From: an uncultured Thermoleophilia bacterium
Lineage (GTDB): Bacteria > Actinomycetota > Thermoleophilia > UBA2241
DNA: 32,000 bases
Reading direction: 5' to 3'
Assembly: GCA_963784975.1 (NCBI GenBank)
Contig: CAWAUK010000014.1
Span: 1-32,000, forward strand
Below, one piece after another: positions 8,267 to 32,000 of the stretch. The notes under the pieces were generated by a model, which was not told the DNA's origin, made no database searches, and worked only from the letters and a program-made list of their open reading frames with translations. Within the stretch, counting starts at the first letter, position 1. Every line of letters starts with the position of its first letter. A program made the position numbers and the translations under genes.

Positions 8267-8279
8267 AAGCATCCGCCGT

Positions 8280-10772: not shown

Positions 10773-10813
10773 GGCGAGCGGACAACGTGCATCTGACGCG
10801 ACGCTGACCGGAA

Positions 10814-10852
10814 CGAGCGGGGATCGAGAAAAGGAATCTCGATCCCCGCTCG
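10814..10852 (+). other. 16-bp perfect intergenic stem-loop between the 510-aa gene and the MIP gene
   Basis: CGAGCGGGGATCGAGA-aaaggaa-TCTCGATCCCCGCTCG. No U-tract follows, so it looks like an mRNA stabiliser, processing site or attenuator rather than a classic intrinsic terminator. Confidence 0.6.
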
Positions 10853-10889
10853 GGCCGCCGCCCTGTCAATTCGTTCTGGAGGTGACACT

Positions 10890-11624: not shown

Positions 11625-11678
11625 ACGACGTGCCGCCGGTGTCCTTCCGGGAGACGACGGTGCGAAGCAAGCAGTGAT

Positions 11679-11733
11679 GGGGCGAAGGCGGGGGCGTGAC
11701 GCTGGTCACGATCGCCCCCGCCTTCGTCGCCCC
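11679..11733 (+). other. long GC-rich intergenic stem-loop between the MIP and flavoprotein genes
   Basis: GGGGCGAAGGCGGGGGCG ... CGCCCCCGCCTTCG(TCG)CCCC: a 14-bp stem plus 4 more bp across a 3-nt bulge, with a 16-nt loop. Its presence argues against the GTG 11696 start for the next gene. Confidence 0.55.
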
Positions 11734-11767
11734 GGACGATAGCGTCGAGCAGGGATCTGGAGAACGG

Positions 11768-12388: not shown

Positions 12389-12395
12389 GGAAGTG

Positions 12396-12968
12396 ATGAC
12401 GATGACGCTGAAGGTTGTGTGGGGCATCAGCGGTTCCGGCGACAAGATGCCCGAGACCGTCGCCGCCATGGCGCAGGCTCGGGAACGGCTCGACCTGGAG
12501 ATCACGGCGGCCGTGTCCATCGCCGGGGAGCGGGTGCTGCGCTGGTACAAGCTGCGCGAGACGGTCGACGAGATCGCGAAGTCGGTGAAGATCGAGAAGG
12601 ACGCCAACTCGCCGTTCATCACCGGGCCGTTGCAGATCGGTCAGTACGATTGCCTGCTGGTGGCGCCCGCGACTGCGAACTCGGTGGCGAAGATCGTGCA
12701 CGGCATCGAGGACAGCATGCTGACGAACGCCGTCGGGCAGACCGCCAAGTCGACGACGCCGATCTACATCATGCCGGTCGATCTCCGCCCGGGCACGACG
12801 GTGACCATGCGCCCCGGCGGCGAGCGCCTCGAGCTCAAGATCCGCGCGATCGACGTGGAGAACACCAGCAAGTTGCGCACCATGGAAGGCATCAGCGTGT
12901 TCGAATCGCCCTCCGAGATCGAGGGCATCCTCCGGGCTTGCGCGGAACGGAAGGACGTCGGCTCGTGA
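12396..12968 (+). CDS. AfpA/DmrB-like flavoprotein (candidate dihydromethanopterin reductase)
   Basis: HFCD-type flavoprotein motifs: VVWGISGSGDK and LLVAPATANSVAKIVHGIEDSMLTNAV. It lies 7 nt after the Isf gene and overlaps the start of mptG (GTGA). The functional name rests on context plus the known DmrB/AfpA relationship. Confidence 0.7.
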   Translation: MTMTLKVVWGISGSGDKMPETVAAMAQARERLDLEITAAVSIAGERVLRWYKLRETVDEIAKSVKIEKDANSPFITGPLQIGQYDCLLVAPATANSVAKIVHGIEDSMLTNAVGQTAKSTTPIYIMPVDLRPGTTVTMRPGGERLELKIRAIDVENTSKLRTMEGISVFESPSEIEGILRACAERKDVGS

Positions 12969-13936
12969 GGGTGTCGGTCGACACCGGCTGCAGGCTGCAC
13001 TTGGGCTTCACCAACCTGAGCGACGACGTGGGCCGCTGCTATGGCAGCCTCGGCGTCGCGCTGGACCGTCCCAGCACGACGGTCATCGTGGAAGAATGCC
13101 GTGACGCGGTCGTCGTCGGAGACGACCCGGAGCAGATCCGCGCGTGCTATGCGGCGCTTCTGTGACCACTATCAGGTCGACCCCCGGGTCTCCATCGAGG
13201 TCAGCGAGTGCATCCCTCAGCACGTCGGTCTCGGCTCGGGTACGCAGCTCGCCCTGGCCATCGGCCTGGGCCTGGCGATGGTCTGCGGTATCGACGCAAA
13301 TGTGTGGGACGTCGCCTCGGCCATGGGCAGGGGACGCCGGTCCGGGATCGGGACGGCGGCATTCCAGACGGGCGGATTCGTCGTCGATGCCGGTCACAAG
13401 AGGGGCGGGATCCGGTCGGGACGCGGCGCCGACGGTGGTGTGGCGCCGCGATCTTCCCGCAGACTGGCGCTTTGTCGTGGTCGTTCCCGACGCGGACGGC
13501 GGTCTGAGCGGGCACAGCGAAGAGGGGGTCTTCGGAGCGTTGGCGCCGTCGGTGCGGATCTCCGAGGAGATCAGCAGGATCACGCTGCTCAGACTGATGC
13601 CGGCCCTCGTCGAGCACGACATCGAGGAGTTCGGCCGCGCCTTGACTGCGGTGGACCGCAAGACCGGCGAGTACTTCTCGGATGTGCAGGGCGGCATATA
13701 CGGCGGGGGGGAGACCAACGCGGCCGTCGATGCTCTGCTGCGCGCCGGCGCCTGCGGGGCGGGACAGAGTTCCTGGGGGCCGGCGGTCTATGGCCTCGTG
13801 CACGAGAAGGATGTCGGGAGGATCGAAGCAGCGGTCAAGAAGTCCCTGGCGGACGACTGGCAGAGAGGCGCAGGTCTTCGCGAGTCACGGCCGCAACACG
13901 GAAGCGAGAGTGGAAGTACTGAAGGTCGCGCTATGA
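12965..13936 (+). pseudogene. mptG: beta-ribofuranosylaminobenzene 5'-phosphate synthase (H4MPT biosynthesis), interrupted by three +1 frameshifts
   Basis: The GHMP-kinase-like protein is spread over frames 2, 0, 1 and 2. Segment 1 is VRVSVDTGCRLHLGF...IRACYAA, ending near 13157. Segment 2 is FCDHYQVDPRVSIEVSECIPQHVGLGSGTQLALA...GGFVVDAGHK, with the next shift between 13400 and 13435. Segment 3 is VVWRRDLPADWRFVVVVP...SSWGPAVYGLV...LADDW, with the last shift near 13860-13873. Segment 4 is QVFASHGRNTEARVEVLKVAL*. This could be real decay or sequence error. Confidence 0.8.
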
Positions 13937-14518
13937 GGTCGGGCCGAGATCCTGAAGCAGCGCTGCCAGCGCGCGTTCGTAGGCAGATCCCGGCGCCACT
14001 TTGCCCACGATCCGGTGGTTCTCTGTGATCGTCGTCAGCGCAGCACCGGCGCCCAGGCGCTCCAGTCTTGTGGCAAGGACCAGGCTCTCGAGCAGGAGTC
14101 CTTCGGCGCGGTTGATCAAGCGCGGCGCCCCGTGGCGATGCACGCGCCTGACGTCGCCCACGAGACGCATTCTGTCGCCGCCGGGGGTCGCGCTGGTCAG
14201 GACCAGCTCTACGTTGACCGTGCACCCGGCGATGACAGGCGCATGGACGTCTTGCGCCCCCGCGAACAGCAGTTGCTCCGGGGCTCGCAACGCCACGTAC
14301 AGCATCCCGGCATCCGCGGGGAAGTTGGCCACGAACTCGCCGCCGTCCAGGATGTTCGCCAGCGTCCGCGAGCCGTCGTACACGTCCATGCACAGCTCAT
14401 CCGGGCCGCTGGTCCACACACCGATTGGAGCCGCGTGGGGGGTGCCATCGCGAAAGGTGGAGATCAGGACTTCGTAGATCCAGCGGTCTTGCATGCCGAG
14501 CCGGCGCAGCTGATCCAT
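13931..14518 (-). CDS. DUF447-like protein (FMN-binding split-barrel type, H4MPT-cluster associated; from memory)
   Basis: 195-205 aa (WIYEVLISTFRDGTPHAAPIGVW...). ATG 14518 has AGGA 7 nt upstream; GTG 14548 and ATG 14494 are alternatives. Its stop overlaps the mptG stop convergently by 6 nt. Confidence 0.65.
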   Translation of the reverse strand: MDQLRRLGMQDRWIYEVLISTFRDGTPHAAPIGVWTSGPDELCMDVYDGSRTLANILDGGEFVANFPADAGMLYVALRAPEQLLFAGAQDVHAPVIAGCTVNVELVLTSATPGGDRMRLVGDVRRVHRHGAPRLINRAEGLLLESLVLATRLERLGAGAALTTITENHRIVGKVAPGSAYERALAALLQDLGPTS

Positions 14519-14663
14519 GTGTGATCCTGTTTGACGGAGGCGAGTCACGCCTCACCGGTAGCGAGCGACAACTGAAGATGGAGAGGGAGTATATCTCGGG
14601 TGGACACGGGCGGAAGTCCGTCGTCGGGCTCGGATTCTCTCGACCGAGGGAGGTTGGCGCGTC

Positions 14664-15536
14664 ATGAAGAAGATCCTGCTGCAGCTCGACAGCGATCGCA
14701 CGGCGAGCGTGTTCGACGCAGTCACGGCCTACGACGCCGGTGCGGACGTGCTTCTTCAGCATGGCTCGGTGGAGCCGGCCGAGGTCCGTGCCATCGTCTA
14801 CGGCGCCATGTTCACGCGCGGCGGCGAAGACCTCAAGAGTTCGGCCGTGTTCATCGGCGGGGCCGACGTGGCCAAGGGCGAAGCCCTGCTCAAGGAGGCC
14901 TGCGGCGCCTTCTTCGGGCCGGTCCGGGTCTCCGTGATGCTGGATGCCAACGGGTGCAACACCACGGCGACCGCCGCCGTCGTCAAGCTTCTCTCCGCCG
15001 GCGATCTGCGCGGGAAGAAGACGGTCGTGCTGGCCGGCACCGGCCCGGTCGGCCGCAGGGCGGCCGGGCTCCTCGCGAAGGAAGGGGCGGACGTGGTCGT
15101 GGCCGAGACCCTGCCCACGGGGACGATGGAGCGGGCGAAGGACGCCTGCGCCACCATCGAGGAGCGCTTCGGGGTGCAGGTGACCCCCGCCGCCGCCGCC
15201 GACGCAGCCGCCACTGCGCGCGTGCTCGAGGGGGCGGAGGCGGTCCTCTGCACCGGCGCCGCCGGGCTTCAGCTGGTCTCTGAGACGATCTGGAGAGATC
15301 ACCCCACCCTGCGGGTGCTGGGCGACGTGAACGCCGTCCCACCGGTCGGCCTGGAGGGCACCAAGGCGACGTGGGACGGCAAGGACGTTGACGGCAAGAT
15401 CGTGTTCGGGGCTCTCGGCATCGGCAACCTCAAGATGAAGATCCACCATCGTTCCGTCGGACGGCTCTTCGAGCAGAACGACCTGGTCCTGGATGCGGAG
15501 GAGATCTTCGCCCTCGCCAAGGAGCTGGCGCAGTAG
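14664..15536 (+). CDS. mtdB: NAD(P)-dependent methylene-tetrahydromethanopterin dehydrogenase (MtdA/B/C family)
   Basis: 290 aa with GAGGGAGG upstream. The sequence has the MtdA/MtdB layout (MKKILLQLDSD...VFDAVTAYDAGAD..., Rossmann segment VVLAGTGPVGRRAA). Which paralogue it is cannot be decided by eye. Confidence 0.85.
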   Translation: MKKILLQLDSDRTASVFDAVTAYDAGADVLLQHGSVEPAEVRAIVYGAMFTRGGEDLKSSAVFIGGADVAKGEALLKEACGAFFGPVRVSVMLDANGCNTTATAAVVKLLSAGDLRGKKTVVLAGTGPVGRRAAGLLAKEGADVVVAETLPTGTMERAKDACATIEERFGVQVTPAAAADAAATARVLEGAEAVLCTGAAGLQLVSETIWRDHPTLRVLGDVNAVPPVGLEGTKATWDGKDVDGKIVFGALGIGNLKMKIHHRSVGRLFEQNDLVLDAEEIFALAKELAQ

Positions 15537-16734
15537 TGCGAGTCCTCGTCCTCGGAGTGAGCACGCGGGCGATGGTCGAGTCCGCGGTCCGCGGCGGTCA
15601 CGAGGTCGTTGCCGTGGATTTCTTCGGCGATCGCGATCAGGCGGGGTTGGCGGAGAGCTACGCGTTGCAGCGGGATCTCGGCCTGCCGGCGACCGCGGAA
15701 GGGTTGGCGGCGGCGGCGCGACGCATCGCCGCCGACGCGGTCGTCTACGGCGCCAATCTGGAGAACCACCCCGAGGTGGTCGGCGAGCTGACTCACGGAG
15801 TGCGGCTGCTCGGCAATCCGGCCGAGGTCGTCCGGGACGTGCGTGACTGGAGCCTGCTCCGACGCGTCTGTGTGAAGGCCGGGATCGCGCACCCGGTGAC
15901 CCTGCTGCGCGGCGAGGAGGAGCGCGCCCGGCGCGGGCGCTGGTTGAAGAAGCGCCTGCGCAGCGGCGGCGGCCACGGGATCGCGGCATGGGACGGCACA
16001 GCGCTGGACGACGCTCACCTGTCTGCAGGCCGAAGTGGACGGCCGCGCAGCTTCGGTCGCGTTCGTGGCCGACGGCAAGGAAGGTCGCATCTTCGGCCTC
16101 ACCGAGCAGCTCTTGGGGCTTTCCGCGCTGGGTGGTTCCGGTTTCGCCTGGTGCGGCAACGTGCTGCCGCTCGAGGTCCCGGAGGCGGACGCCGCATCGG
16201 TCCGCGCCCAATTGGAGCACATGGTGTCGTGTCTTACCCGGCACTTTGGCCTCGTCGGTGTCAACGGGTTGGACGTGGTGATCGGCCGCGACCCCGAAGG
16301 CGTCGTGCGGCCGTTTCTGATCGAGGTCAACCCGCGCTTCAGCGGTTCCATGGAGCTGGCGGAACGCGCCTTCGGCGTCGGCGTGTTCGCGCTCCACGTC
16401 GAAGGCTCAGCGGGCACTATGCCGCGCGGTTCTTTCGCCGTCGAGCGCGCTCCCGACGGCTGCGTCGGCAAGGGGATCGTGTACGCACGGCGCCCGGTCG
16501 TCGCCCCGGACACCGGGAAGTGGCGTTCCCGCGGCGTCCGGGACGTGCCGTGGTCCGGCCAGCAGTGTCGCCGCCGGGCATCCGGTGTGCACAGTATTCG
16601 CTCGCGGCCGAGACCGTGAGGCGTGCCTTGACGGACTGTCCTCGGCTGCGGCCGCGGTGTATGGAGATATCGAGGAGAAAGAGGAGGGGCGCCGTGGGCA
16701 AACGACTCGCCTTCATCACCGGACGCGCGCGTAG
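15536..16734 (+). pseudogene. ATP-grasp ligase of the C1-cofactor cluster type, interrupted by two +1 frameshifts
   Basis: Frame 2 reads MRVLVLGVSTRAMVESAVRGGHEVVAVDFFGD...KKRLRSGGGHGIAAWDGTALDDAHL up to 16021. After an extra nt at 16022, frame 0 reads LQAEVDGRAASVAFVADGKE...LIEVNPRFSGSMEL...RDVPW. After a shift near 16558-16562, frame 1 reads SSVAAGHPVCTVFARGRDREACL...* and ends at 16734. Confidence 0.75.
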
Positions 16735-16773
16735 GGCGTCCGGCATGCACAGGGGCACAGAGGAGGCGGTGGC

Positions 16774-18410
16774 ATGATGCTCGGCATCCTCGGCGGGCGC
16801 GTCTACGACCCGCGAAACGGCAAGGACGGCGAGGTCGGCGACATCTGGGTGAAGGACGGCCGTGTGGTTGCGCCGGAGGACGTGGACCGAGAGTCGGCGC
16901 AGACCGTCGACGCCGCCGGCCTTGTGGTCATGCCCGGCGGCGTCGACATCCACGCGCACATCGCCGGCGGCGAGGTGAACTCTGGCCGCAAGCTTCAGCC
17001 TGAGGATCACCGCGGCCATGAGCGCGCGCGATCGGCCAACCTGCGCGCGGGCGCCGGAGGGATCGTCCCCTCCACCCACCTCACCGGGTATCTCTACTCC
17101 GAGCTCGGCTACACGACGGTGATGCAGGCGTCCGCCGCGCCGCTCGCGGCCCGGCACGTCCACGAAGAGCTCGAGGACGTGCCCAACATCGACAATGGCA
17201 CCTACATCGTGATGGGCAACAACCACTTCGTCATGCAATGCATCGCCGACAAGCAGCCCGAGAAGGCGCGCGACTATGTGGCCTGGCTCCTGCGAGCCAC
17301 CCGCGGCTACGCGATCAAGATCGTGAATCCCGGCGGCGTCGAGAACTGGAAGTGGGGCAAGAACGTCGCCGAGCTGGACGACGAGGTCATCGGCTACGGA
17401 GTCACTCCGCGACAGATCGTCCAGACCCTGGCTTCTATCGCCGACGATCTCGGCCTGCCGCACTCGATCCACGTCCACGGCATCAACCTGGGCCGGCACA
17501 CGAGCGCCAGAACGAGCATCGAGACGATGGCCGCCCTCACCGGGCATCGCCTGCATCTGTGCCACCTGCAGTTCCTGAGCTACGGGGCGGGACGCGGCCA
17601 CATCCACTCATCGGAGGCGGCCGCCGTCGCGGCGGCGGTCAATGCCAACCCGGAGTCACCGTCGACGTCGGACAGCTGATCTTCGGCGATGCCACGACGA
17701 TGACCTGTGACGGCCCTCTCCAGTACGCCCTCTACCAGACGACCGGCCACAGGTGGATCAACAGCGACGTGGAGAGCGAAACGGGCGGGGGGGTCGTGCC
17801 CATCGTCTACAAGCGCCCGCAATCCCATCAACGCGACGATGTGGCTCACCGGCATGGAGCTCTTCCTGCTGATCGACGACCCGTGGCGGGTCTTCCTGAG
17901 CACCGATCATCCCAACGCTGGTCCCTTCACCAGCTATCCACAGGTCATCAGGCTGCTCATGGACCGCGACTACCGGCGGGAGGTGTTCGAGAGCCTGCAC
18001 CCGCGTGCACGCCGAGGGAGCTCTGCTTCCGGAGCTGGACCGCGAGTACTCTCTCGGCGAGATCGCCGTCATCAGTCGCGCCGGTCCCGCACTGGCGCTC
18101 GGCCTCGAGCACAAGGGCCACCTGGGCGTCGGCGCCGACGGCGACATCGCCATCTATGAGGATCGCGCCGACAAGGAGGCGATGTTCGCCCGCCCGCGGT
18201 ACGTCTACAAGGGCGGCGAGCTCGTCGCACGCGACGGCGTCGTCGTCGCGGATAGTCCGCGGTCGCACGTTCGCAGTGGCGCCGGAGTACGACACAGGGA
18301 TCGAGGCCGAGCTACGCGAGTACTTCAAGGAGGCGTACACGGTCTCGTTCGACAACTTCTCGATGCTTGCCGGCCACGAAGCCCCCTTCGAGATCGTGGC
18401 CTGTCGCTGA
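16774..18410 (+). pseudogene. fwdA: formylmethanofuran dehydrogenase / formyltransferase-hydrolase subunit A (amidohydrolase), interrupted by four frameshifts
   Basis: Frame 1 holds MMLGILGGRVYDP...GGVDIHAHIAGG...AIKIVNPGG...HLCHLQFLSYG...AVNANP. A -1 shift near 17653 leads to frame 0: VTVDVGQLIFGDATTMTCDGP...GGGVVPIVYKR. A +1 shift near 17814-17818 leads to frame 1: [43 protein letters not shown]...HPR. A +1 shift near 18000-18012 leads to frame 2: [27 protein letters not shown]...[15 protein letters not shown]...DGVVVAD. A +1 shift near 18251-18254 leads to frame 0: [13 protein letters not shown]...EIVACR*. Confidence 0.85.
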
Positions 18411-18422
18411 GGAGGTCCGCGC

Positions 18423-19400
18423 ATGCCAGATGACTCATGGTGCCGCGTGCAGCGCGACACACAGCAAGGGCGCCCGGCCGTGCCCGTGGCTCTGAGCCGC
18501 GCCGGTGTGACCAATCTGCGCCGCATCATCTCGATGAAGGACAGCGGCAGGTCCGAGCTGTTCTACGCGACGCTCGACCTGTTCGCCGATCTCAGCTCCA
18601 AGCACGCCGGCGTCCACATGTCGCGCTTCAGCGAGGTGGTCGAGGGTCTCGCCGAGGGCCTCACGCGCAGACCGTTCGCCGACATCGAGTCACTCGCCAA
18701 GCGCATGGCCGAAGACGTGGTCGAGACCCAGGAGGCGACGCGCGCCGAGGTCCACATCAGAGTGCAGTCGCCGATCACGAAACAGACCCCGGTCACGCAT
18801 CGGCCCACGGAGCAGCTCTTCACCTTGGTGGGCATCGCCGCGGCGTCGCGCACGCGGACACGCCTCCTTGTCGGGGTCGAGGTGCACGGCCTGACCGTGT
18901 GCCCGTGCGCCCAGGACATGATCCGCGGTCAGTCACTGGACCGCCTCTGCGCCAACGGCTACAGCGAAGAGGAGGCCGAGCGGATCCTGGGTCTTCTGCC
19001 CATCGCCTCGCACAACCAGCGCGGCAAGGGCACGCTCCTCATCGGCTCGGAGAGCCGCCTTCCCGCGGGCGACCTGGTGGCCATCGTCGAGCAGTCGATG
19101 AGCTCCGAGATCTACGAGCTGCTCAAGCGCCCGGACGAGCTCTACGTCGTCGACAAGGCGCATCGCAATCCGCGCTTCGTCGAGGATGTGGTGCGCGAGA
19201 TGCTGCGCCACGTCGTCGAGGACTATCCGGACCTCCCGGACGACTCGTTCGTTCTGGCCCGCCAGGAGAACTACGAGGGCATCCACGAGCACAATGCCTT
19301 CGCCGAGCGGTACGGCACCATGGCGGAGATCCGCCCCGAACTCGCCGGCAAGACGTTCGCCACGCGGCACACCGCCCTGGGCGAGTGGATGGCGGGCTAG
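18423..19400 (+). CDS. mptA: GTP cyclohydrolase, FolE2/MptA family
   Basis: 325 aa with GAGGAGG upstream. Motifs: [27 protein letters not shown]. The cluster context favours the pterin branch of H4MPT synthesis. Confidence 0.85.
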
Positions 19401-19412
19401 GGGGCGACGGTC

Positions 19413-20760
19413 GTGCCGGATACGCTGTTCGTGACCGGCAGGCTCGCCGCCCACGCGCTGCGCAGGACTCTCGCCAGTCTCGAGCTCGACTTCGACTACG
19501 AGGTCGCGGTCCTCAGCGGCTCGGTGGCGGCCCTCATGCGTACCGAGTGGATCGCGCGGAGACTGCCCGAAGACTGCGGGTGTCGGCAGGTCATGATCCC
19601 GGGGCTCTGCAGGGGCGACCTCACCACGATCGAGACAAGAGTCGGTGTCCCGGTGGTCCGCGGCCCCAAAGACCTCAAGGATCTGCCGCGCCTTCTTCGG
19701 TCAGGAGCGCGTCCTCGAGGGCTACGGCGACTATGACGTGAGGATCCTCGCCGAGATCGTCGAGGCCTACCGGATGCCCTTTGCCGACATCCTCGGACAG
19801 GCGGAGTACTACCGCGCCAGCGGCGCCGACATCATCGACCTCGGCTGCCCGCCCATGGAGGCGTTCCCGGGAGTCGCCGACGTGGTCGCGGGACTCAAGG
19901 ATCACGGGTTCACGGTCAGCATCGACACCTTCCACCCGCAGACCATCCGCGAGGCCGACGAGGCTGGGGTCGACCTCCTTCTCAGCGTGAACGCGCAGAA
20001 CCTCGACCTGGTGCCGCAGCTGCGCTGCAAGGTCGTGGTGATCCCCGACTTCGGCGAGGGCCTCGAGTCTCTGGAGCGCAACGTGGCCGCCGTGGACGCC
20101 TTTGGCGCGTCCTACGTCATCGACCCGATCCTCGATCCGCTGAGCTTCGGCTTCACGGCCTCGCTCGAGCGGTACTGCGAGACGCGTCGGCGTCACCCGG
20201 ACGCCGAGATGCTCATGGGCCTCGGCAACCTCACCGAGCTCACGGACGCCGACAGCGTCGGCGTCAACGCGGTGATGGCCGGCGTCATCGCCGAACTGGG
20301 CATCGACTACGTGCTCACGACGGAGGTCGTCAGCTGGGCGCGAGGCGCCGTGCGAGAGCTCGACCTGGCCCGCAAGTTGATGCACTACGCGCTTCTGAAC
20401 AGGGTCCTTCCGAAGGGCGTCGACGACGGCCTCGTGGCGCTCAAGGACCCCCCGTTCGATACGTATTCGGAGGCGGAGCTGCGCGACATGCAGCGGAGCG
20501 TGCGCGACAAGAACTTCCGGATCTTCGCCGATCGCGAGTCGGTGTACGTCTTCAATCGCGATACCTTCGTGCGCGGCCACGACCCGCGCCGACTCTTCTC
20601 CGCCTTGAACGTCGCGGACCCCAGCCACGCCTTCTACCTCGGGAAGGAGCTCGAGCGGGCCGCTCTCGCGGTCCAGCTCGGCAAGAAGTACACGCAGGAG
20701 TCGCCCCTGCGCTGGGGGTATCTGAGTGGAGACACAGGCGGAGAGGGTGAGCCCGGATGA
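19413..20760 (+). pseudogene. dihydropteroate-synthase-like pterin-binding protein with N-terminal extra domain (H4MPT biosynthesis), one +1 frameshift
   Basis: Frame 0 reads MPDTLFVTGRLAAHALRR...VVRGPKDLKDLP up to about 19688. Frame 1 then reads AFFGQERVLEGYGDYDVRILAEIVEA...GADIIDLGC...TFHPQTIREA...* to 20760. There is an extra nt near 19689 in the ccgcgcc context. Confidence 0.75.
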
Positions 20761-21887
20761 CGCGGGCCATCGGTGTCGATCCAGGGACTGTGAGCTTCGA
20801 CGTCTGCGGCCGGGACGACGACGACGTGTTCTTCGAAGAGACGTATGAGACCTCCGACGTGCGCGACGACCCCGGGATGCTGGTGGAGGCCTTGAGTGCT
20901 TGCGGGCCGGTCGACCTCATCGTCGGACCGTCAGGCTACGGTCTGCCGTGGACCGACGTCCGCGACGTCGGGGCGGAGGAGCTGGACCTGATGCTCCTGG
21001 CCGACGCCGCGGATGGGCCGCGCGGCACGATCATCGGCGGGATGGGACGCGTGCTGGAGGCGCTCAGGGAGAGCGGTCTGCCGGTCTGCTTCGCGCCGGG
21101 CGTGGTGCAGCTCAAGACCGTCCCCGAGCATCGCAAGGCCAACCGGATCGACATGGGCACGGCCGACAAGCTCTGCGCCGTGGCGCTCGCCGTGTGGGAC
21201 CAGGCGCGCCGCCTGGACGTGCCGTACTCTGCGACCTCGTTCGTCTCGGTCGAGGCCGGCGGCGCGTTCACGGCCGTCGTGGCCGTCGAACGCGGCGCGA
21301 TCATCGACGGCTCGGGCGGCACCTGCGGGGCGATGGGATTCAGGGCGTTGGGGGCCATGGACGGTGAGCTCGCGTACCTTCTGCGGGACTTCCCCAAAGA
21401 CGTCCTCGCGAGCGGCGGAGCGGCGTGGATCGCCGGCGCCCCCGAGTGCTCGCCCGAGGAGCTCGTCGCCGCAGCTTCGAGTGACCCCCGTGCGGAGCTC
21501 GCCCTTGAGGCGTTGCTGGAGGACGTGGCCAAGCGCGTCGCCGCCGAGGTGATCCTGCTCGAGGCGCCCCGCGAGATCCTCCTGTCGGGACGACTCGTCC
21601 GCGTGCCGGGCCTGCGCCGCCGTCTCGCTGAAGCGCTGCGCAGGTTCGGCCCAGTCCACGTGATCGAAGGCTACGCGAGCGTCTGCAGTGAGGCCGCGCA
21701 AGGGGCCGCCCTTCTGGGCCAGGGACTGGCCGGCGACCGCGGCCTGAGCGACCTCGTGGACGCGATGGGCCTGCGCGGTGCGTGCGGCGGCGTGCTGGAC
21801 CACCTGTTCGTCAGTGAAGCTGAGTCTGTGCGGAGTCGCCATCCGGTGCCGCGACGTCCGCAGGTGCCTTTCTGGGAGAGGAGCTAG
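20757..21887 (+). CDS. ASKHA-fold (sugar-kinase/Hsp70/actin-like) protein, DUF1464-like (from memory), C1-cluster associated
   Basis: ATGA overlap with the upstream gene. The N-terminal phosphate-1-like motif is AIGVDPGTVSFDV, with later GxG-rich segments (VEAGGAFTAVVAVERGAIIDGSGGT). 376 aa. Confidence 0.6.
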   Translation: MTRAIGVDPGTVSFDVCGRDDDDVFFEETYETSDVRDDPGMLVEALSACGPVDLIVGPSGYGLPWTDVRDVGAEELDLMLLADAADGPRGTIIGGMGRVLEALRESGLPVCFAPGVVQLKTVPEHRKANRIDMGTADKLCAVALAVWDQARRLDVPYSATSFVSVEAGGAFTAVVAVERGAIIDGSGGTCGAMGFRALGAMDGELAYLLRDFPKDVLASGGAAWIAGAPECSPEELVAAASSDPRAELALEALLEDVAKRVAAEVILLEAPREILLSGRLVRVPGLRRRLAEALRRFGPVHVIEGYASVCSEAAQGAALLGQGLAGDRGLSDLVDAMGLRGACGGVLDHLFVSEAESVRSRHPVPRRPQVPFWERS

Positions 21888-21893
21888 GGTCTC

Positions 21894-22781
21894 ATGCATG
21901 TCAACGGAGTCGAGATAGAGGATACGTTCGCCGAGGCTTTCGGGATGTGGGGCTCACGCCTCGTGGTCACGGGCGAAGACATGGGCTGGGCCCGCACCGC
22001 CGCCGAGGCGGCGACGGGCTTCGCCACATCGATCATCGGCTGCGGCTGCGAGGCCGGCACCAACGACCTGGCGCCAGGCGAGGAGACGCCCGACGGGCGC
22101 CCCGGCGTGGCGGCGCTGGTGTTCACGACGTCGCGCAAGAACATGGAGACGGTGCTGCTGCAGCGCGTCGGCCAGGCGGTGATGACCTGCGCCACCTCGG
22201 CCTGCTACGACGGCCTTGCCGCCGATGAGAAGATCAAGGTGGGCGGCAAGCTCCGCTACTTCGGCGACGGCTTCCAGGGCAGCAAGCTGCTTGACGGACG
22301 CCGGCTGTGGCGCGTCCCCGTGATGGACGGCGAGTTCGTCGTGGAGGAGAGCTTCGGCGTTGCCAAGGCCGTCGGCGGCGGCAACTTCTTCATGATGGCG
22401 GAGAGTCTGAGCGCGGCGCTCGCCGCGGCCCAGGCCGCAGTGGTGGCGATGCGCGCCGTGCCCGGCGCCATCATGCCGTTCCCGGGAGGCGTCGTGCGGA
22501 GCGGCAGCAAGATCTCGTCGCGGTACAAAGGTCAGAACGTCTCCAGCAACACGCCCTACTGCCCGACGTTGCGCGCCGAGGAAGGCAGCGCCCTCAGAGA
22601 CGGCGAGAACGCGGTCCTGGAGATCGTCATCGACGGCCTCAGCGCCGCTTCGGTGGCGGAGGCCATGCGCGCGGGCATCGCCGCGGCCTGCCTTCCCGGC
22701 GTGACCCGCATCTCGGCCGGCAACTACGGCGGCTCGCTGGGGCCGTTCCACTTCGCACTGCGCGAACTGATGAGCGCGTGA
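21894..22781 (+). CDS. fhcD: formylmethanofuran:tetrahydromethanopterin N-formyltransferase (Ftr / FhcD)
   Basis: 295 aa with GGAGAGGAG upstream. The N-terminus MHVNGVEIEDTFAEAFGMWGSRLVVTG and the overall layout are typical of Ftr. Confidence 0.88.
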   Translation: MHVNGVEIEDTFAEAFGMWGSRLVVTGEDMGWARTAAEAATGFATSIIGCGCEAGTNDLAPGEETPDGRPGVAALVFTTSRKNMETVLLQRVGQAVMTCATSACYDGLAADEKIKVGGKLRYFGDGFQGSKLLDGRRLWRVPVMDGEFVVEESFGVAKAVGGGNFFMMAESLSAALAAAQAAVVAMRAVPGAIMPFPGGVVRSGSKISSRYKGQNVSSNTPYCPTLRAEEGSALRDGENAVLEIVIDGLSAASVAEAMRAGIAAACLPGVTRISAGNYGGSLGPFHFALRELMSA

Positions 22782-22791
22782 GGCGGCGGCG

Positions 22792-23571
22792 ATGGGATGC
22801 ATAGCATGTGCGGCTCTCGTCCTCGAAGGCGCCGGAGTGACGCTGACGCGCAGGGAATCGAGCAGACTTCCGGTGGTGGCGGAGAGCATCTGTCCTGATC
22901 GCTTCGTGGGTCTCGGGCTCACCGAGATCACCGAGCTCCCCGTCCTCAGCGGCGGCCGTGAAGTGCCGCTCGGCGACGTTTTCGACGTGGATGGGCCTGG
23001 GGCCCAGAACGTGACCGTGACGGGTGATCTCTCCAATGTGGAGAGCATCGGCCAGGGGATGACCATGGGCCGGCTGACCGTGTCGCGCGACGTTGGCCCG
23101 CAACTCGGCGCAGGAATGTCGGGCGGCGAGATCGTCGCGGAGCGCGCCGCCGGCGGGTCGGTGGGCGCAGGGATGTCGGGCGGACGCATCATCGTGCAGG
23201 GCGATGCCGGGCAGGCGGTGGGGTCGCACATGAGTGGCGGCCTCATCGTGGTGCTCGGCGACGCCGGCGAGGGGGCCGGCGCTGGAATGGTCGCCGGCTC
23301 GATCGTCGTCGGCGGTCGGCTTGCCGGGGCCCCGGGAGCGGGCATGAAGCGCGGCGCGATAGTCGCGTTCGGCGAGACGCCCGTGCCGGCGTCGACCTTC
23401 CGCTTCGCCGGCCTCGACCGGCCCGCGTTCCTGAGTTCTTGCCTCCCGGACCTGGAGGACACGGGTCTCGAAGGGTGCTCATGGATCACCGAAGGTGAGT
23501 TCCGGCGCTACGTGGGCGACATCGACAGCGGAGGCGAAGGGGAGGTCCTGGTCCTTGATCAGTCTCAATGA
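22792..23571 (+). CDS. fhcC: formylmethanofuran dehydrogenase subunit C-like (FhcC)
   Basis: Beta-helix glycine repeats: GAGMSGGEIVAE.., GAGMSGGRIIVQGDAG.., GSHMSGGLIVVLGDAG.., GAGMVAGSIVVGG. The start is uncertain (ATG 22792 or GTG 22837). Confidence 0.85.
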   Translation: MGCIACAALVLEGAGVTLTRRESSRLPVVAESICPDRFVGLGLTEITELPVLSGGREVPLGDVFDVDGPGAQNVTVTGDLSNVESIGQGMTMGRLTVSRDVGPQLGAGMSGGEIVAERAAGGSVGAGMSGGRIIVQGDAGQAVGSHMSGGLIVVLGDAGEGAGAGMVAGSIVVGGRLAGAPGAGMKRGAIVAFGETPVPASTFRFAGLDRPAFLSSCLPDLEDTGLEGCSWITEGEFRRYVGDIDSGGEGEVLVLDQSQ

Positions 23572-24520
23572 GAGCGCCTACACCGTCTTCGTGAGGCTGA
23601 GCGCAGCGGCCGAGGCCCTGGGCGTGATGGTGTCGACGCTGGACAACGGAGCGACGGTTCTCGACGCCGGCGTTGAGACGGGCGGCTCACTGGAAGCGGG
23701 CCGCCTGTTCTCCGAAGTCTGTCTGGGCGGCCTTGCCGACGTCCGTCTTCGCCAGATCCAACTGGATGACCTGGTGCTACCGGGGGTCGAGGTGAACGTC
23801 CATCGGCCGGTGCTGGCGTGCATGGCCTCGCAGTACGCCGGCTGGGCACTCAGTGTGCCGGCGACAGGCGCCTCGGAGAAGTACTTCGCCATGGGCTCCG
23901 GACCCGCGAGGGCGTTGTACCGGGGCGATCCCATCTTCGCCGACATCGAGTATCTCGACTCGGCGACGCTCGCCGTGCTGACGCTGGAATCGAACCGTCT
24001 GCCATCTGCTGAGGTGGCCGCCTGGGTGGCGGGCAAGTGTGGCGTGGCACCCGATCGTCTCTCGCTGCTCGTCGCGCCGACGGCATGCCTCGTGGGGTCG
24101 GTCCAGATCGCCGCGCGCATCGTCGAGACGGGGCTCCACAAGATGCATGAGGTGGGATTCGACCTGACCACCGTGAGTTCTGGCTTCGGCTCGTGTCCTC
24201 TCGCGCCGGTGGCGGCCGATGACCTCACGGCCATCGGCCGCACCAACGACGCGGTCCTCTACGGGGGCCGCGCCTGGTACACCGTGGAGACCGAGGACGA
24301 GCACATCGAGAGCGTCATCGAGCGCCTGCCGTCGGTTGCCTCGAGCGACTACGGAGTGCCCTTCGGGGAGCTCTTCCAGCGATACGGCGGTGACTTCTAC
24401 AAGATCGACCCTCTGCTGTTCAGCCCCGCCGAGATCACCATCACGAACAGCATGAGTGGCCGGACCTTCCACGCCGGCGCCGTCGACACCGCCATCCTCC
24501 GCGCTTCGTTGTTCACTTGA
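23555..24520 (+). CDS. mch: methenyl-tetrahydromethanopterin cyclohydrolase
   Basis: About 321 aa from TTG 23555, which has GGGGAGG 9 nt upstream and overlaps the fhcC end; GTG 23495 is an alternative. The sequence (ISLNESAYTVF...LDNGATVLDAGV...GSGPAR...) has the Mch layout. Confidence 0.85.
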   Translation: MISLNESAYTVFVRLSAAAEALGVMVSTLDNGATVLDAGVETGGSLEAGRLFSEVCLGGLADVRLRQIQLDDLVLPGVEVNVHRPVLACMASQYAGWALSVPATGASEKYFAMGSGPARALYRGDPIFADIEYLDSATLAVLTLESNRLPSAEVAAWVAGKCGVAPDRLSLLVAPTACLVGSVQIAARIVETGLHKMHEVGFDLTTVSSGFGSCPLAPVAADDLTAIGRTNDAVLYGGRAWYTVETEDEHIESVIERLPSVASSDYGVPFGELFQRYGGDFYKIDPLLFSPAEITITNSMSGRTFHAGAVDTAILRASLFT

Positions 24521-25398
24521 AGGTCGCGATCCTGGGACAGGACGGCGGCTGGCATACCGAGAGCCTCCGCGGCGCGCTCGCGCGGCGCGGTCTGCCGGTC
24601 GAGTGCTACCCCGTCACGCAGCTGACGGCCAGGGTGGTCGGCGGGCCGCGCCTCACGGCGGCGACCACCCCGCTTGACGGCTGCGACGTCGTGTTCGTGC
24701 GCGCCATCCCGTCGGGGTCGCTGGAGCAGGTGGTCTTCCGCATGGATGCCCTGCGAATGCTCGAGCACGGGGGCGTGAGAGTGGTCAACTCGGCGTTCGC
24801 CATCGAGCACGGCGTCGACAAGTACTACACGTCCGCGCGGCTCCACGACGCGGGTGTCCCGACGCCGCGCACGGTGGTCTGTGAACGCTTTGAGGGGGCC
24901 ATGGCCGCCTACCAGGAGCTGGGCGGCGACGTGGTCGTCAAGCCTCTGTTCGGCTCCGAGGGCAGGGGCATCGTGCGTGTCTCAGACGTCGACACCGCGT
25001 ACCGCGTCTTTCGCGCGCTCGAGCTCGGCCGCTACGTCTACTGTCTGCAGGAATTCGTGCCGCACGGCCACGAAGACATCCGTGCCTTCGTAGTCGGAGA
25101 ACGGGTCATCGGCGCCATGGTGCGCCGCGGTCAGGGGTGGAAGACGAATGCCGCCCAGGGCGCCAAGGGCGAACCACTGGACCTGGACGAGCATCTTCGT
25201 GACCTTAGTCTGCGTGCGACGCGCGTCGTGGGTGCCGAACATGCCGGCGTCGATATCCTCCCCTGCGATGACGGCGGGTACACGGTGATCGAAGTGAACA
25301 CCATCCCGGGGTGGCGGGCGCTGCGCGCGGCCACAGGCGTCGACGCCGCTCAGTGTCTGGTCGACCACGTCCTTGAGGGGTCGGAGTGGACCGGCTGA
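24517..25398 (+). CDS. mptN: RimK-type ATP-grasp alpha-L-glutamate ligase (MptN-like, H4MPT glutamylation)
   Basis: The TTG start overlaps the mch stop (TTGA). 293 aa: MKVAILGQDGGWHTESL..., VVVKPLFGSEGRGI, EVNTIPGW. The MptN name comes from cluster context. Confidence 0.75.
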   Translation: MKVAILGQDGGWHTESLRGALARRGLPVECYPVTQLTARVVGGPRLTAATTPLDGCDVVFVRAIPSGSLEQVVFRMDALRMLEHGGVRVVNSAFAIEHGVDKYYTSARLHDAGVPTPRTVVCERFEGAMAAYQELGGDVVVKPLFGSEGRGIVRVSDVDTAYRVFRALELGRYVYCLQEFVPHGHEDIRAFVVGERVIGAMVRRGQGWKTNAAQGAKGEPLDLDEHLRDLSLRATRVVGAEHAGVDILPCDDGGYTVIEVNTIPGWRALRAATGVDAAQCLVDHVLEGSEWTG

Positions 25399-25476
25399 CC
25401 GGGGCGGCGCACGCCGGAGGTGTACGCTGAGGGTGCGCCCGCGCAGGGGGCGACGTAAAGCAGCCGCTCCGGTCGC

Positions 25477-26334: not shown

Positions 26335-26358
26335 CTTGCCGCCGCCTCACTCAGTGCT

Positions 26359-27708: not shown

Positions 27709-27776
27709 GGCTCGCTCCTCCGTCGATCAGGTGATCGATGTCACGGTGCGCCCGCACGGGGCGCAGCTCTGAATGC

Positions 27777-27956
27777 TCACCCCAACGCTCCGCCGCGGAA
27801 ACTGCCGCGGACGCGGCGCGGCAGCCACAGATCGTCCCCGATCGCTTCCCACGCCGGGACCTCCTCGTCATGGGGCGACGTCTCCGGCTCGCGACGGGGC
27901 CGCTCGGGCTGGCTCGGCTGGTGGTCCGAAGCTCGTGATGTGTCCAAGATCACCAC
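27777..27956 (-). CDS. possible 59-aa ORF between fwdD and fwdB
   Basis: It is below the ORF-track cutoff. GAAAGGAG immediately follows the fwdD stop, then GTGGTG. Product: VVILDTSRASDHQPSQPERPRREPETSPHDEEVPAWEAIGDDLWLPRRVRGSFRGGALG. No family recognised, and it could simply be spacer. Confidence 0.25.
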   Translation of the reverse strand: MVILDTSRASDHQPSQPERPRREPETSPHDEEVPAWEAIGDDLWLPRRVRGSFRGGALG

Positions 27957-27965
27957 GCTCCTTTC

Positions 27966-28328
27966 CTAGACTCCGGGGCGGTCACCCGGCGGCTCGTGGT
28001 CCGGTGCCGGATCGACGTCGACCTCCCAGTTCTTCTGAGAAGGCATCCCTGTGCCGTCGGTATCCCCTGACATCAGCTGACAGGTCGGCGGCCCATAGGG
28101 GACGAAGACCATCCCGGGAGGAAGATCACCCTCCGCGCACCTGTACACCGCCTCACCCCAGTCGCTGCGCACACGGACCGACATGCCGGGGGCAAGCCCC
28201 AGTTGAGCGAGATCCTGTGGGTTCATGTCCAGGGTGCTGACGACCGCCAGGTACTCGTCCCTGAGCTTGCCCATGTTCTCCTGCTGGCCCTGCTTGATGG
28301 TCCGACCGGCGATGAACACACAGCGCAT
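27966..28328 (-). CDS. fwdD: formylmethanofuran dehydrogenase subunit D (molybdopterin-dinucleotide-binding domain)
   Basis: 120 aa with AAGGGGG 5 nt upstream. The sequence FIAGRTIKQGQQ...LGLAPGMSVRVRSDWGEAVYRC...GMVFVPYGPP...TDGTGMPSQKNWEVDV matches the FwdD layout. Confidence 0.85.
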   Translation of the reverse strand: MRCVFIAGRTIKQGQQENMGKLRDEYLAVVSTLDMNPQDLAQLGLAPGMSVRVRSDWGEAVYRCAEGDLPPGMVFVPYGPPTCQLMSGDTDGTGMPSQKNWEVDVDPAPDHEPPGDRPGV

Positions 28329-28596
28329 ACAGACCCCCTTCGCACCGGCAGGCGCTTCGACGCGGAGCGCCGTATCGAAACAGGATACCGCATCTCCAAC
28401 TGAAGCGAGTCGTGAGAGTCGTCAGGGTCTCGGATGTCGACACCGCTGGCCGCGTGTCTCGGGCTCATCCTCCCGTGCGATGACCGCGTTATAGTGTGGT
28501 CGAGGTCGACACGATCCCTTGCTGGCGAGTGCTCGCTGCGGTCACTGGCGTCGAAACCGCGCAGAGTCTCGCGGACCACGTCTTCGAGGAGGTGGG

Positions 28597-29487
28597 GTGG
28601 AGCGGCTGACGGGCGTCGAGATCGCCTGGGCGGCGCAGCTGGCCTGCCTGTTCGAGGCCAGCGTCGCCAAACCCGGCAACGTGTCGCCGCGAGTCGGCTT
28701 CGCCGACGCGCGCTTCGAGGACTTCGCGGCCAGCGCCGTGGCGATCGGGCCGGCGCTGCGCGAATCGGGGCTGGTGAGCGTGGGTGAGACTATCGCGAGG
28801 GCGGCGGCCGATACGCGCCGCCTCGTGGCCACCAACACCAATCTCGGCATGATCCTGCTGCTCGCGCCCATGGCGAGGGCCGCCGCGAGTCTCGAAGCCG
28901 GGAGCGGTCTGCGCGTCGCCGTGAGCCGCGTTCTCGCGGACTTGACGTTGCAGGACGCGCGTCTCGCCTACGAGGCCATCCGCGCGGCGTCCCCTGCCGG
29001 CATGGGCGAGGTCGATCACCACGACGTGGGCGAGGACGACGTGACCGTCACCCTGCTCGAGGCGATGGACGCCGCGCGCGAGCGCGATTCCATCGCCCGG
29101 GAGTACGTCACCGAGTTCGAGGTCACGTTCGTGCTCGGCGCGGACACGCTCATGCGCTGCTGGGATGGCGGCGTCTCTTTCTCGGACGCTATCTTGACCA
29201 CCTTCCTCACGATCCTCGCCGCCGTGCCCGACACGCTGATCGCACGCAAGAACGGCAAGGCCGCTGCGGAGGACGTGTCGCGACGTGCGGCCCGCGTGTT
29301 GTCCTGCGGAGGAAGCCTCACCGCGCGGGGGCGTGCTGGTCTCGACGAGCTGACGCGCGAGCTCGGCGACGAGGCCCACGCCCTGAACCCGGGTACCACC
29401 GCCGACTTCGTCGCCGCCTCGATCTTTGCCTTTCTGACAGAGGGCGGGATGCTCGCCGACGTGCCCGCTCTTACGGCCCACTGGTGA
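28597..29487 (+). CDS. triphosphoribosyl-dephospho-CoA synthase (CitG/MdcB) family protein, C1-cluster type
   Basis: GTG 28597 follows GAGGAGGTGG. The product has AAQLACLFEASVAKPGNVSP, TNTNLGMILLLAPMA and LNPGTTADFVAAS. The start could be further upstream in ORF 28519. Confidence 0.75.
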   Translation: MERLTGVEIAWAAQLACLFEASVAKPGNVSPRVGFADARFEDFAASAVAIGPALRESGLVSVGETIARAAADTRRLVATNTNLGMILLLAPMARAAASLEAGSGLRVAVSRVLADLTLQDARLAYEAIRAASPAGMGEVDHHDVGEDDVTVTLLEAMDAARERDSIAREYVTEFEVTFVLGADTLMRCWDGGVSFSDAILTTFLTILAAVPDTLIARKNGKAAAEDVSRRAARVLSCGGSLTARGRAGLDELTRELGDEAHALNPGTTADFVAASIFAFLTEGGMLADVPALTAHW

Positions 29488-30232
29488 GTCGGTGGTCATC
29501 AGGTCGCACGGCGCGGATGTCCGCGGCCGTGATCCAGCCGCGATGAAGAGCCGTCGCGAGCAGCACGCCGTCGGCGCCGGCCTCGGCGAGCGACCGCAGG
29601 TCCTCAGCGGTGCGCACGCCGCCGCCGGCGATCAGGCGCATGCCGGGGAAGGCGGCTCGCACGGCTCGCAGCGCCTCGACATCCGGGCCCGCGCCGGTGC
29701 CCACGTGGCTCAGGGCCAGCAAGATGAACTCGGTCACATCCTCGTTGGCGAGCAGCTCGATCGCGGCGACTGCAGGCTGGCCGGAGAGCGCGGAGCATCT
29801 GCTGAGGACGCCGTGGTCGCCGACGTCGACGCTGACCAGCATCTGCGCCGGCGGCAGGATCTCGCGGATCGCACGCAGCGAGCCGAGGTCCGTCAGTGTC
29901 TCCGTGCCGACGATGACTCGCGCGGCTCCGGCCTCGAGGAGCCGGGACGCGGCCTTCGAGTCGCTGACCCCCGCGTCCACCCAAGGCTCCGCCCCGAGAT
30001 CATCGCGCAGCTCACGGATGACCTCTCGCTGATCGCCCCTGCCTTCGAGTGCGTCGAGGTCGGCGACGTACACGGCCATGCCGCCACACTCGCGGCAGAG
30101 GGCCTGGGCGACGGCCACTGGATCGCTGCCGGCGACGAGCCCGCTGCGCACGGCGCGGTAGTGCTGCCGTTCGCCGCGCAGCCCCTGCACGACTCGTCCC
30201 CCCATGAGGTCTAGGACAGGAATGGCATCCAC
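29471..30232 (-). CDS. HisA/HisF-family (beta/alpha)8 barrel protein, C1-cluster type
   Basis: GTG 30232 has AAGGGAGAGG upstream. The product has VDAIPVLDLMGGRVVQG, LIAGGGVRTAEDL and GADGVLLATALH. The long N-terminal extension of ORF 29471..30415 is Arg/Ser-rich and was not used. Confidence 0.75.
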   Translation of the reverse strand: MDAIPVLDLMGGRVVQGLRGERQHYRAVRSGLVAGSDPVAVAQALCRECGGMAVYVADLDALEGRGDQREVIRELRDDLGAEPWVDAGVSDSKAASRLLEAGAARVIVGTETLTDLGSLRAIREILPPAQMLVSVDVGDHGVLSRCSALSGQPAVAAIELLANEDVTEFILLALSHVGTGAGPDVEALRAVRAAFPGMRLIAGGGVRTAEDLRSLAEAGADGVLLATALHRGWITAADIRAVRPDDHRLTSGP

Positions 30233-31265
30233 CTGGCCTCTCCCTTCTGCGATCCTTGTCCACGAGTACGTGACCGGCGGCGGATGGCCCACGCCCAGTC
30301 TGCCGGCCGGTCTCGCCGGGGAGGCGCTGGCTGTCCTGCGCGCGCTGCTCGCCGACCTGCGCGCCTGGGGCAGGTTCCCCGTGGTGACCACGCGCGACCG
30401 GCGTCTCCGCGACACGCCCCTGACGGCGGATCGCGTCGTCGATCTCGACGCCGAAGTCTACCCCACCAGGCTGGTCGAACTGGCGCGGGAGTGTGGCGCG
30501 GCGCTCGTCGTCGCCCCTGAGGGCGGCGGCGTTCTCGAGCGCCTGAGCTCGCTGGTGTCGGACGCCGGCGTCTGCCTTCTCGGCAGCTCGCCCGAGGCCG
30601 TGGCCGTGGCGGCGGACAAATGGGAGTGCTACCGGCGGTTCTCGCAAGCCGGACTGCCCGCGCCGAGGACGATGCGTGTCTCCCCGGGCGCCGCCTCCGT
30701 GGCGGCGGCTCGAATCCGCTACCCTGTGGTCGTCAAGCCCCTCGACGGCGCCGGCTGTGACGGCGTGGTTCTGGCGACGGATGACGACGTCCTGAAGAGG
30801 GCTTTGCGGCAGCCGGCGCTGCGCGGAGCGGAATCGATCCTCGTGCAGGAGTACGCTTCGGGCGCGGCGGCCAGTGTGTCGCTGCTGGTCGCCGGTGGTC
30901 GCTCGACCGTGCTCAGCCTGAACCAGCAGCGGGTGCGCGCGGGCATCCCCTTCGCGTACGATGGCGGAGTCGCCTCGTGGCCTCATCCGCGGCGCGCGGA
31001 GGCATGCGAGCTCGGGCAGAGGGCCGTGGCCTTGGTGCCCGGCCTGCGGGGATACGTGGGGGTCGACCTGGTGCTTGGCGAGAAGACATGCCTGCTGATC
31101 GAGATCAATCCGCGGGTGACGACGTCATACGTGGGTCTGCGCCGCGTCGTCGACCTCAACATGGCCGCAGCCATCTGGCGCGCCTGCCGGGACGGCTCTC
31201 TGCCCGCCGCGGTGCCCGTGCCGCCCCTCGCGGCGTTCGGAAGGACGTGGGCTGATGACTCCTGA
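30222..31265 (+). CDS. ATP-grasp ligase, MfnD-like (tyramine-glutamate ligase type of methanofuran biosynthesis)
   Basis: The sequence reads ...AILVHEYVTGGG...ALVVAPEGGGVLERLSSLV...LLGSSPEAVAVAADKWECY...PVVVKPLDGAGCDGV...LLIEINPR. ATP-grasp is confident. The MfnD-type call comes from a remembered resemblance to the M. jannaschii enzyme. The start is ATG 30222 or 30204. Confidence 0.7.
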   Translation: MASTWPLPSAILVHEYVTGGGWPTPSLPAGLAGEALAVLRALLADLRAWGRFPVVTTRDRRLRDTPLTADRVVDLDAEVYPTRLVELARECGAALVVAPEGGGVLERLSSLVSDAGVCLLGSSPEAVAVAADKWECYRRFSQAGLPAPRTMRVSPGAASVAAARIRYPVVVKPLDGAGCDGVVLATDDDVLKRALRQPALRGAESILVQEYASGAAASVSLLVAGGRSTVLSLNQQRVRAGIPFAYDGGVASWPHPRRAEACELGQRAVALVPGLRGYVGVDLVLGEKTCLLIEINPRVTTSYVGLRRVVDLNMAAAIWRACRDGSLPAAVPVPPLAAFGRTWADDS

Positions 31266-32000
31266 GTCGCCAGTGACCGTCGGTTGGGACGTGGGCGGCG
31301 TCCAGGTGAAGGCCGCCCGAGTAGAGTCACGCGCCGACGCTCCATGCGCGGTGCGCACGGCGGTGCGTCCGTTCGAGGTGTGGCGCGGCCGCGAGCGGCT
31401 CACAGCCGTCCTCATCGAGGTGGCTGAGGAGCTCGCGCTCGACCCCGGCATGCCGCTCGCGCTGACCATGACGGCCGAACTCTCGGATGCTTTCAGAAGC
31501 AAGCGGGAAGGAGTCCTGTTCGTGATGGACAGTGTGCGCGAGGCCTTCCCGCGGAATCCTGTGTCCGTGCTCGACAGCCGCGGCGAGTTTGCGGCGCTGC
31601 CCCGGGCCCGCTCGCGCCCGCTCGACTTCGCGGCCACGAACTGGATCGCCTCGGCCCTGTTCGCGGCCACGCGCGTCGACGACTGCATCCTCGTGGACGT
31701 GGGCAGCACGACCACGGACATCGTCCCCATCAAGGGGGGTCGTCTTGGCCTGTGAGGGTCGCAACGATCTCGCGCGACTCGGCGCCGGTGAACTGGTCTA
31801 CACCGGCGTGCTGCGAACCAACCCCAACACGCTGACGACGTATGTGCCGGTGCGCGGCCGTCCCTGCAGGGTCGCCGCCGAGTACTTCGCGGTGATGGCG
31901 GACGCCTATGTGCTGCTGGATCGCCTGGATGCGGCGGACTACACCTGCCCTACGCCTGACGGGCGAGATCCCTCGCCGGCCGCCTGCGCGGAGCGTCTGG
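31255..32000 (+). pseudogene. hydantoinase/oxoprolinase-like H4MPT-linked C1-pathway protein, +1 frameshift at a G6 run; 3' end outside window
   Basis: Frame 1 reads MTPESPVTVGWDVGGVQVKAA...ILVDVGSTTTDIVPIKGG up to the G run at 31734-31739. Frame 2 then continues with no stop to the window end: VVLACEGRNDLARLGAGELVYTGVLRTNPNTL...AEYFAVMADAYVLL... Confidence 0.7.

Follow-up and report, generated by a model that had tools for sequence, protein, structure and literature searches.

Eleven frameshifts in a tetrahydromethanopterin gene island of an uncultured Thermoleophilia bacterium are most probably consensus errors of the assembly

Background

Has this bacterium recently lost a one-carbon (C1) pathway, or has its genome been read incorrectly? 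The question is raised by the first 32,000 nucleotides of contig CAWAUK010000014.1 (assembly GCA_963784975.1, here G000; the stretch is G000:C14:1-32000, and 'the window' refers to its whole length), taken from an uncultured Thermoleophilia bacterium, in which frameshifts interrupt five genes of a tetrahydromethanopterin (H4MPT)/methanofuran gene island. An initial annotation of the window described eleven such shifts, regarded them as confined to C1 genes, and left two alternatives: a locally unreliable assembly or a very recent inactivation of fwdA and mptG. From the sequence comparisons reported below, we consider it very probable that the eleven frameshifts are assembly consensus errors and not mutations of the organism.

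G000 is a draft metagenome bin of 77 contigs and 3.61 Mb (~70% GC), with an estimated completeness of 83% and contamination of 5.9%. The window was aligned with its close relatives G011, G013, and G012 (same genus, ~84-90% identical to G000) using MAFFT, giving a four-genome nucleotide alignment, and intact orthologues from G013, G005, and G006 served as tblastn queries. The intact genes that could be aligned to a relative lie within 10998-25398 and 28500-31256 of the window; in positions 1-10900, where frames were checked by Pfam and a frame tracker only, no shift was detected. The tracker is a codon-usage Viterbi model whose training set was 1,084 long G000 reading frames, and it recovered nine of the eleven known window shifts (six of eleven with its strict rule).

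Results

Eleven one-base indels in five genes

The five broken genes are as follows:

12965..13936, plus strand: mptG-like gene (beta-ribofuranosylaminobenzene 5'-phosphate [beta-RFAP] synthase type, GHMP-kinase fold), in four frame segments
15536..16734, plus strand: first ATP-grasp gene, in three frame segments
16774..18410, plus strand: fhcA/fwdA amidohydrolase subunit (Amidohydro_3), in five frame segments
19401..20760, plus strand: dihydropteroate synthase (DHPS)-like gene (DUF6513, Pterin_bind, DUF4346; Pfam and tblastn), in two frames
31255..32000, plus strand: Hydantoinase_A-like gene, running past the window end

All eleven of the shifts first described are present (three in mptG, two in the first ATP-grasp gene, four in fhcA, and one each in the DHPS-like and hydantoinase-like genes), as found by a codon-position GC plot, alignment, tblastn, and blastp. 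Their polarity was also read correctly: ten are one-base insertions (+1) and one is a one-base deletion (-1), the latter in fhcA at ~17649. Within each of the five genes, GC at the third codon position switches phase.

Extra bases in mptG at ~13148 (T), ~13410 (A), and ~13856 carry the tblastn match through frames 2, 3, 1, and 2 in turn and leave the Pfam domains GHMP_kinases_N and GHMP_kinases_C in different frames; at each of these sites all three relatives have a gap in the alignment. The first ATP-grasp gene passes through frames 2, 3, and 1 (tblastn) by way of extra bases at ~16022 (T) and ~16564 (A), with the Pfam domain ATP-grasp_3 confined to the middle frame. The missing base of fhcA lies in a C run shortened from four to three, and extra bases follow at ~17814, ~18016, and ~18257, so that the gene is read in frames 1, 3, 1, 2, and 3; its five segments correspond in blastp to residues 167-449, 453-504, 508-571, 573-651, and 654-701 of the protein from G013, with identities of 75-97%. 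Two stops interrupt frame 1, the wrong frame there, within 17650-17811; the segments contain none in their correct frames.

A single extra base at ~19688 moves the DHPS-like gene from frame 3 to frame 1 (tblastn), and the three relatives are gapped at that position. In the hydantoinase-like gene the Pfam match to Hydantoinase_A is split over two frames (domain positions 4-99 and 113-197), with tblastn passing from frame 1 to frame 2. This shift had been attributed to the G6 run at 31734-31739, which is of equal length in all relatives; the difference is an extra T at ~31744-31745 (CTTGG, as against C-TGG in the relatives). Apart from the broken five, every window gene that can be aligned to a relative gives a tblastn match in one frame.

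Every lesion is private to this assembly

The ten insertions are absent from all three close relatives, and the base missing at 17649 is present in all three; the comparison with orthologous loci that the initial annotation had suggested thus finds all eleven indels in the window only. For fhcA the comparison could be widened to an alignment of 23 sequences (the window and 22 others, of which 17 are independent metagenome contigs of the clade), and here too the four indels occur in the window alone. The insertion at 16564 in the ATP-grasp gene is likewise absent from one independent contig, L109, as well as from the relatives.

Near two of the fhcA sites, G012 and G011 each have a different extra base of their own, 2-5 nt from the window insertions at 17814 and 18257. 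We estimate by hand that the odds of both near-coincidences are ~0.01, and they may point to locally error-prone sequence contexts.

Frame switches occur in patches throughout the genome

Over the whole of G000 the tracker reports 546 strict same-strand frame switches away from stop codons, 423 of them insertion-type (+1) and 123 deletion-type (-1), that is, 77% +1. Because the strict setting recovers only six of the eleven known shifts, the true genome total is probably higher; a small share of the 546 will be false, given that the tracker miscalls one conserved gene overlap of ~47 nt upstream of fhcA in the relatives. As a control, no events were called in 200 kb of a clean genome of the same genus (G007). 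Homology supplies a further check: intact G013 segments, compared with 178 kb of their orthologous coding sequence in G000, reveal 14 frame switches, 11 of which are +1.

These events are not evenly spread. Counts per 6.5-kb bin are over-dispersed (index of dispersion 2.1), 38% of neighbour spacings are shorter than 1 kb (14% expected), and 20 non-overlapping clusters match the C1 locus in density, at six or more strict events per 6.5 kb. The clustering noted in the window is real, in that it exceeds a Poisson model, but the accompanying argument that indel error would not cluster fails, the error being patchy across the whole genome. Events lie in slightly GC-richer sequence (71.2% versus 70.3%), which may reflect detection power only, and the genome-wide tracker events show no contig-end effect on their positions; with the GC difference slight and the end effect absent, neither local GC nor contig ends was retained as a cause of the patches.

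The affected genes extend well beyond C1 metabolism. Pfam matches distribute nuoD over three frames and nuoF over two and show nuoG to be split, as are an adenosine deaminase gene and a short-chain dehydrogenase gene, each in two. They also show, farther along the contig of the window and 5-16 kb beyond its end, a split metallophosphoesterase gene and a radical-SAM/BATS gene in three frames. The supposed confinement to C1 genes holds for the window, whose other genes are read in single frames, and does not hold for the genome, where genes outside C1 metabolism carry the same breaks; it appeared because the view was limited to 32 kb. The densest patch is the nuo (complex I) operon on contig C51, where almost all genes are split and 13 strict +1 switches fall within ~8 kb (1-8127).

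Sister assemblies carry the same kind of insertion at other sites

Isolated private one-base insertions at the orthologous locus number 31 in G011 and 22 in G012, and each of the two assemblies also has one isolated deletion. Their sites differ from those of the window and fall in genes that are intact there; the orthologues of the intact window genes between 20757 and 25398, for example, carry many private insertions in both assemblies. In the same alignment G013 has no isolated private one-base insertion, and the tracker makes only one or two calls each at this locus in G013, G005, and G006. Outside this locus G013 too has switches in patches and mostly of +1 type: a sample of 400 kb gave 102 strict events, of which 83 are +1.

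When the three affected assemblies are taken together, at the resolution of the alignment, there are 61 insertions to 3 deletions. Together with the genome-wide ratio in G000 (423 to 123), this disposes of the view that the +1 bias is special to the C1 locus. All four bases occur among those inserted, and only 15 of the 61 insertions extend a homopolymer. Accordingly, a homopolymer explanation was rejected, as the inserted base equals a neighbouring base in those 15 of 61 cases and at 40% of background positions. No motif is enriched around the 61 precisely placed insertions after correction for multiple tests (the best of the 256 4-mers occurs at 5 of 61, with p = 0.001 before correction), and the contexts GATC, TCGA, and GTCT, considered as methylation or four-base-codon signals, do not survive that correction either.

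Marker completeness is low in several few-contig genomes of the genus (for example, 72% for one of 7 contigs and 66% for one of 30 contigs), which would be expected where frameshifts break marker genes. G002, a genome of the same genus rated 98% complete, has 20 strict calls (13 +1 and 7 -1) in C11:1-200000, a rate of 10 events per 100 kb, and may carry some consensus errors of its own; high marker completeness is thus no guarantee of a clean consensus in this genus.

Broken and intact genes have evolved under the same constraint

Selection was assessed from window-private substitutions, as the rate at codon positions 1 and 2 relative to position 3. Broken genes have a ratio of 0.44 and intact genes one of 0.43 (Fisher p = 0.88), so that no relaxed selection was detected in the former relative to the latter. 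The close agreement indicates that purifying selection acted on the broken genes throughout the branch.

Gene content of the remainder of the window

The other features of the window are the following (identified by Pfam, except where no family is given):

up to ~7 kb: hydrogenase maturation genes (HycI-like protease, hypF, hypD, hypE-like)
from ~9.2 kb: the H4MPT/methanofuran gene island
~9.2 kb onward, before mptG: island start, with DUF2193, MIP channel, FMN reductase, and flavoprotein genes
13931..14548, minus strand: DUF447-family gene, intact (DUF447_N and DUF447_C; one tracker segment)
14664..15536, plus strand: mtd (methylene-H4MPT dehydrogenase), intact (Mpt_N, E = 1.6e-29)
18423..19400, plus strand: mptA (MptA/FolE2-type GTP cyclohydrolase), intact (GCHY-1, E = 1.1e-64)
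20757..25398, plus strand: DUF1464, ftr/fhcD, fhcC (GXGXG), mch, and RimK-type ATP-grasp genes, all intact (also single-frame in tblastn)
25400-28466, minus strand: fwdC/fwdB-like block
25477-26334, minus strand: GXGXG fwdC-like gene
26359-27351, minus strand: weak molybdopterin fwdB-like gene
27367-27708, minus strand: small reading frame, unassigned
after the fwdC/fwdB-like block: CitG-like gene, second ATP-grasp gene, and the Hydantoinase_A-like gene
between the CitG-like and second ATP-grasp genes, minus strand: His_biosynth-like gene

The tblastn matches of mtd (291 aa, 91% identity to G013) and mptA (over 329 aa) are each in a single frame. Those Mch relatives that have a source name are metagenome-assembled genomes (MAGs) labelled 'Actinomycetes bacterium' or 'Thermoleophilia bacterium'. 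Three tRNA genes (7672-8353; two on the minus strand and one on the plus strand) sit in a 1.5-kb lower-GC non-coding stretch between the hydrogenase maturation genes and the C1 island.

Three further features distinguish the locus. The fhcC gene (22792-23571) has 58% amino-acid identity to its G013 orthologue, versus 79-87% for ftr and mch; aligned with the relatives it has in-frame gaps (36 and 78 nt), and its private substitution rate exceeds that of every other gene in the locus. Between the first ATP-grasp gene and fhcA, ~1.5 kb are present in G011, G013, and G005 and absent from the window, G012, and L109. Finally, the minus-strand block of ~3 kb at 25400-28466, between the RimK-like and CitG-like genes, is specific to the window and absent at that place in the relatives.

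Discussion

What consensus indel error produces is the pattern seen here: the lesions are private and biased towards insertion, share no motif, lie in patches over the whole genome, reach core genes, and are unaccompanied by decay. That they recur in sister assemblies as a class and not as sites supports the same conclusion. In this account the G000 consensus would contain spurious single-base insertions by the hundred, most of them not in homopolymers, grouped in kilobase-scale patches that probably mark places where read depth was low or polishing failed; the likely cause would be long-read-type consensus error at low or uneven coverage. The interval 13.1-19.7 kb would then be one error patch and the insertion at 31745 a further isolated error. 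Of the two alternatives left by the initial annotation, an unreliable assembly is the one we retain, in a wider form than was proposed, since the C1 locus is one of about 20 such patches and not a local fault.

Several observations weigh against consensus error and should be set beside it. Residual Nanopore errors are usually homopolymer deletions, so that a signature of insertions outside homopolymers matches no named technology. A metagenome scan found no sequence of the same strain with which to compare the window; the best match was L109, which has 94% nucleotide identity in fhcA and belongs to a different strain. Nor is a protein identical to the Mch of the window on record. The ten clustered shifts miss the three interleaved genes DUF447, mtd, and mptA, as they would if the broken genes were real pseudogenes, although by a hand estimate the chance that ten random events miss at least three of seven genes is roughly p = 0.1, which is not unusual. 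Lastly, rpoB is intact, indicating that not every essential gene is affected.

The interleaved genes bring us to the best of the competing explanations, namely that C1 oxidation has just been lost and that the mptG, ATP-grasp, fhcA, DHPS-like, and hydantoinase-like genes are now decaying. Several lesions per gene beside intact neighbours would be natural in such a case, and the locus has undergone other change, in that the ~1.5-kb stretch (labelled fwdD/fwdB) upstream of fhcA is missing and fhcC is unusually divergent. We nevertheless regard real, very recent pseudogenisation, including the suggested inactivation of fwdA and mptG, as very improbable. The same type of lesion is found genome-wide, including in nuoD, nuoF, and nuoG; each of the eleven lesions is a one-base indel, and stop codons and larger deletions are lacking; there is no excess of non-synonymous private changes; and it would be implausible for fhcA to have gained four independent indels within 1.6 kb and no further decay. 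The ten-to-one excess of insertions, moreover, runs opposite to the deletion bias of bacterial mutation that Mira, Ochman and Moran reportedly described in 2001.

A mutator population or an early stage of genome decay, with hundreds of true one-base insertions, would account for events that are genome-wide and occur in sister genomes of the genus as well. We rate such a real frameshift load as a shade less probable again than pseudogenisation, because the sites are private to each assembly, some genomes of the genus are clean (no events in 200 kb of G007, no private insertions in G013 at this locus), and the 17 independent contigs of the clade are intact at all four fhcA sites; kilobase patchiness and the low marker completeness of few-contig assemblies also suit a technical cause.

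Translational recoding, with the ribosome shifting +1 or reading a four-base codon at these sites, would suit the strong +1 bias and the open, conserved downstream frames, but is scarcely credible when the sites share no sequence context, the inserted bases are mixed, no site recurs in relatives or independent contigs, and one of the eleven shifts is -1. Equally far-fetched is the combination in which hundreds of non-homopolymer one-base insertions in coding genes are real, in this organism and in its sister lineages, and full-length proteins are still made through widespread, motif-free +1 recoding, against which stand the private sites, the lack of a motif, and the intact state of the same genes in the 17 independent contigs.

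If the frameshifts are consensus errors, as we conclude, then the cell itself most likely has undamaged H4MPT/methanofuran one-carbon genes. The false inference at stake is a loss of beta-RFAP synthase and of the formyl-methanofuran amidohydrolase subunit, and hence of H4MPT-dependent C1 oxidation. More generally, our results amount to a data-quality warning for G000 and its sister bins G011 and G012, as several hundred spurious frameshifts distort gene calls, pseudogene counts, completeness estimates, and metabolic reconstructions.

Comparison with known systems

False pseudogenes caused by indels are known in long-read assemblies and MAGs, according to two reports (PMC8103633; the proovframe preprint, 10.1101/2021.08.23.457338), and the lesions described here resemble such long-read or low-coverage errors in being single-base indels that split conserved genes genome-wide and are private to one assembly. 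They resemble them further in showing no other sign of decay and in the depressed marker completeness of few-contig assemblies of the genus. They differ in being nearly pure insertions, outside homopolymers and in kilobase patches, whereas Nanopore errors are usually homopolymer deletions. With true bacterial pseudogenes, as formed in reductive evolution, they share the presence of several frame-disrupting lesions per gene beside intact neighbours; unlike these, they lack deletion bias, stop codons, larger lesions, and relaxed selection, they extend to core respiratory genes, and none of the relatives has them.

The gene island itself differs from those of related MAGs in two respects. The window is without the ~1.5-kb stretch (labelled fwdD/fwdB) upstream of fhcA (site 16757-16763), and its block at 25.4-28.5 kb consists of divergent fwdD/fwdB/fwdC-like sequence with ~65% nucleotide identity to the relatives' stretch, on the opposite strand. 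In other respects its order matches that of H4MPT/methanofuran islands in MAGs of uncultured Thermoleophilia/Actinomycetota (mptG, DUF447, mtd, ATP-grasp, fhcA, mptA, and DHPS-like, continuing with DUF1464, ftr, fhcC, mch, and RimK-like, at 72-90% identity to genomes of the same genus), and among the islands already known from uncultured Thermoleophilia-like Actinomycetota it is unexceptional.

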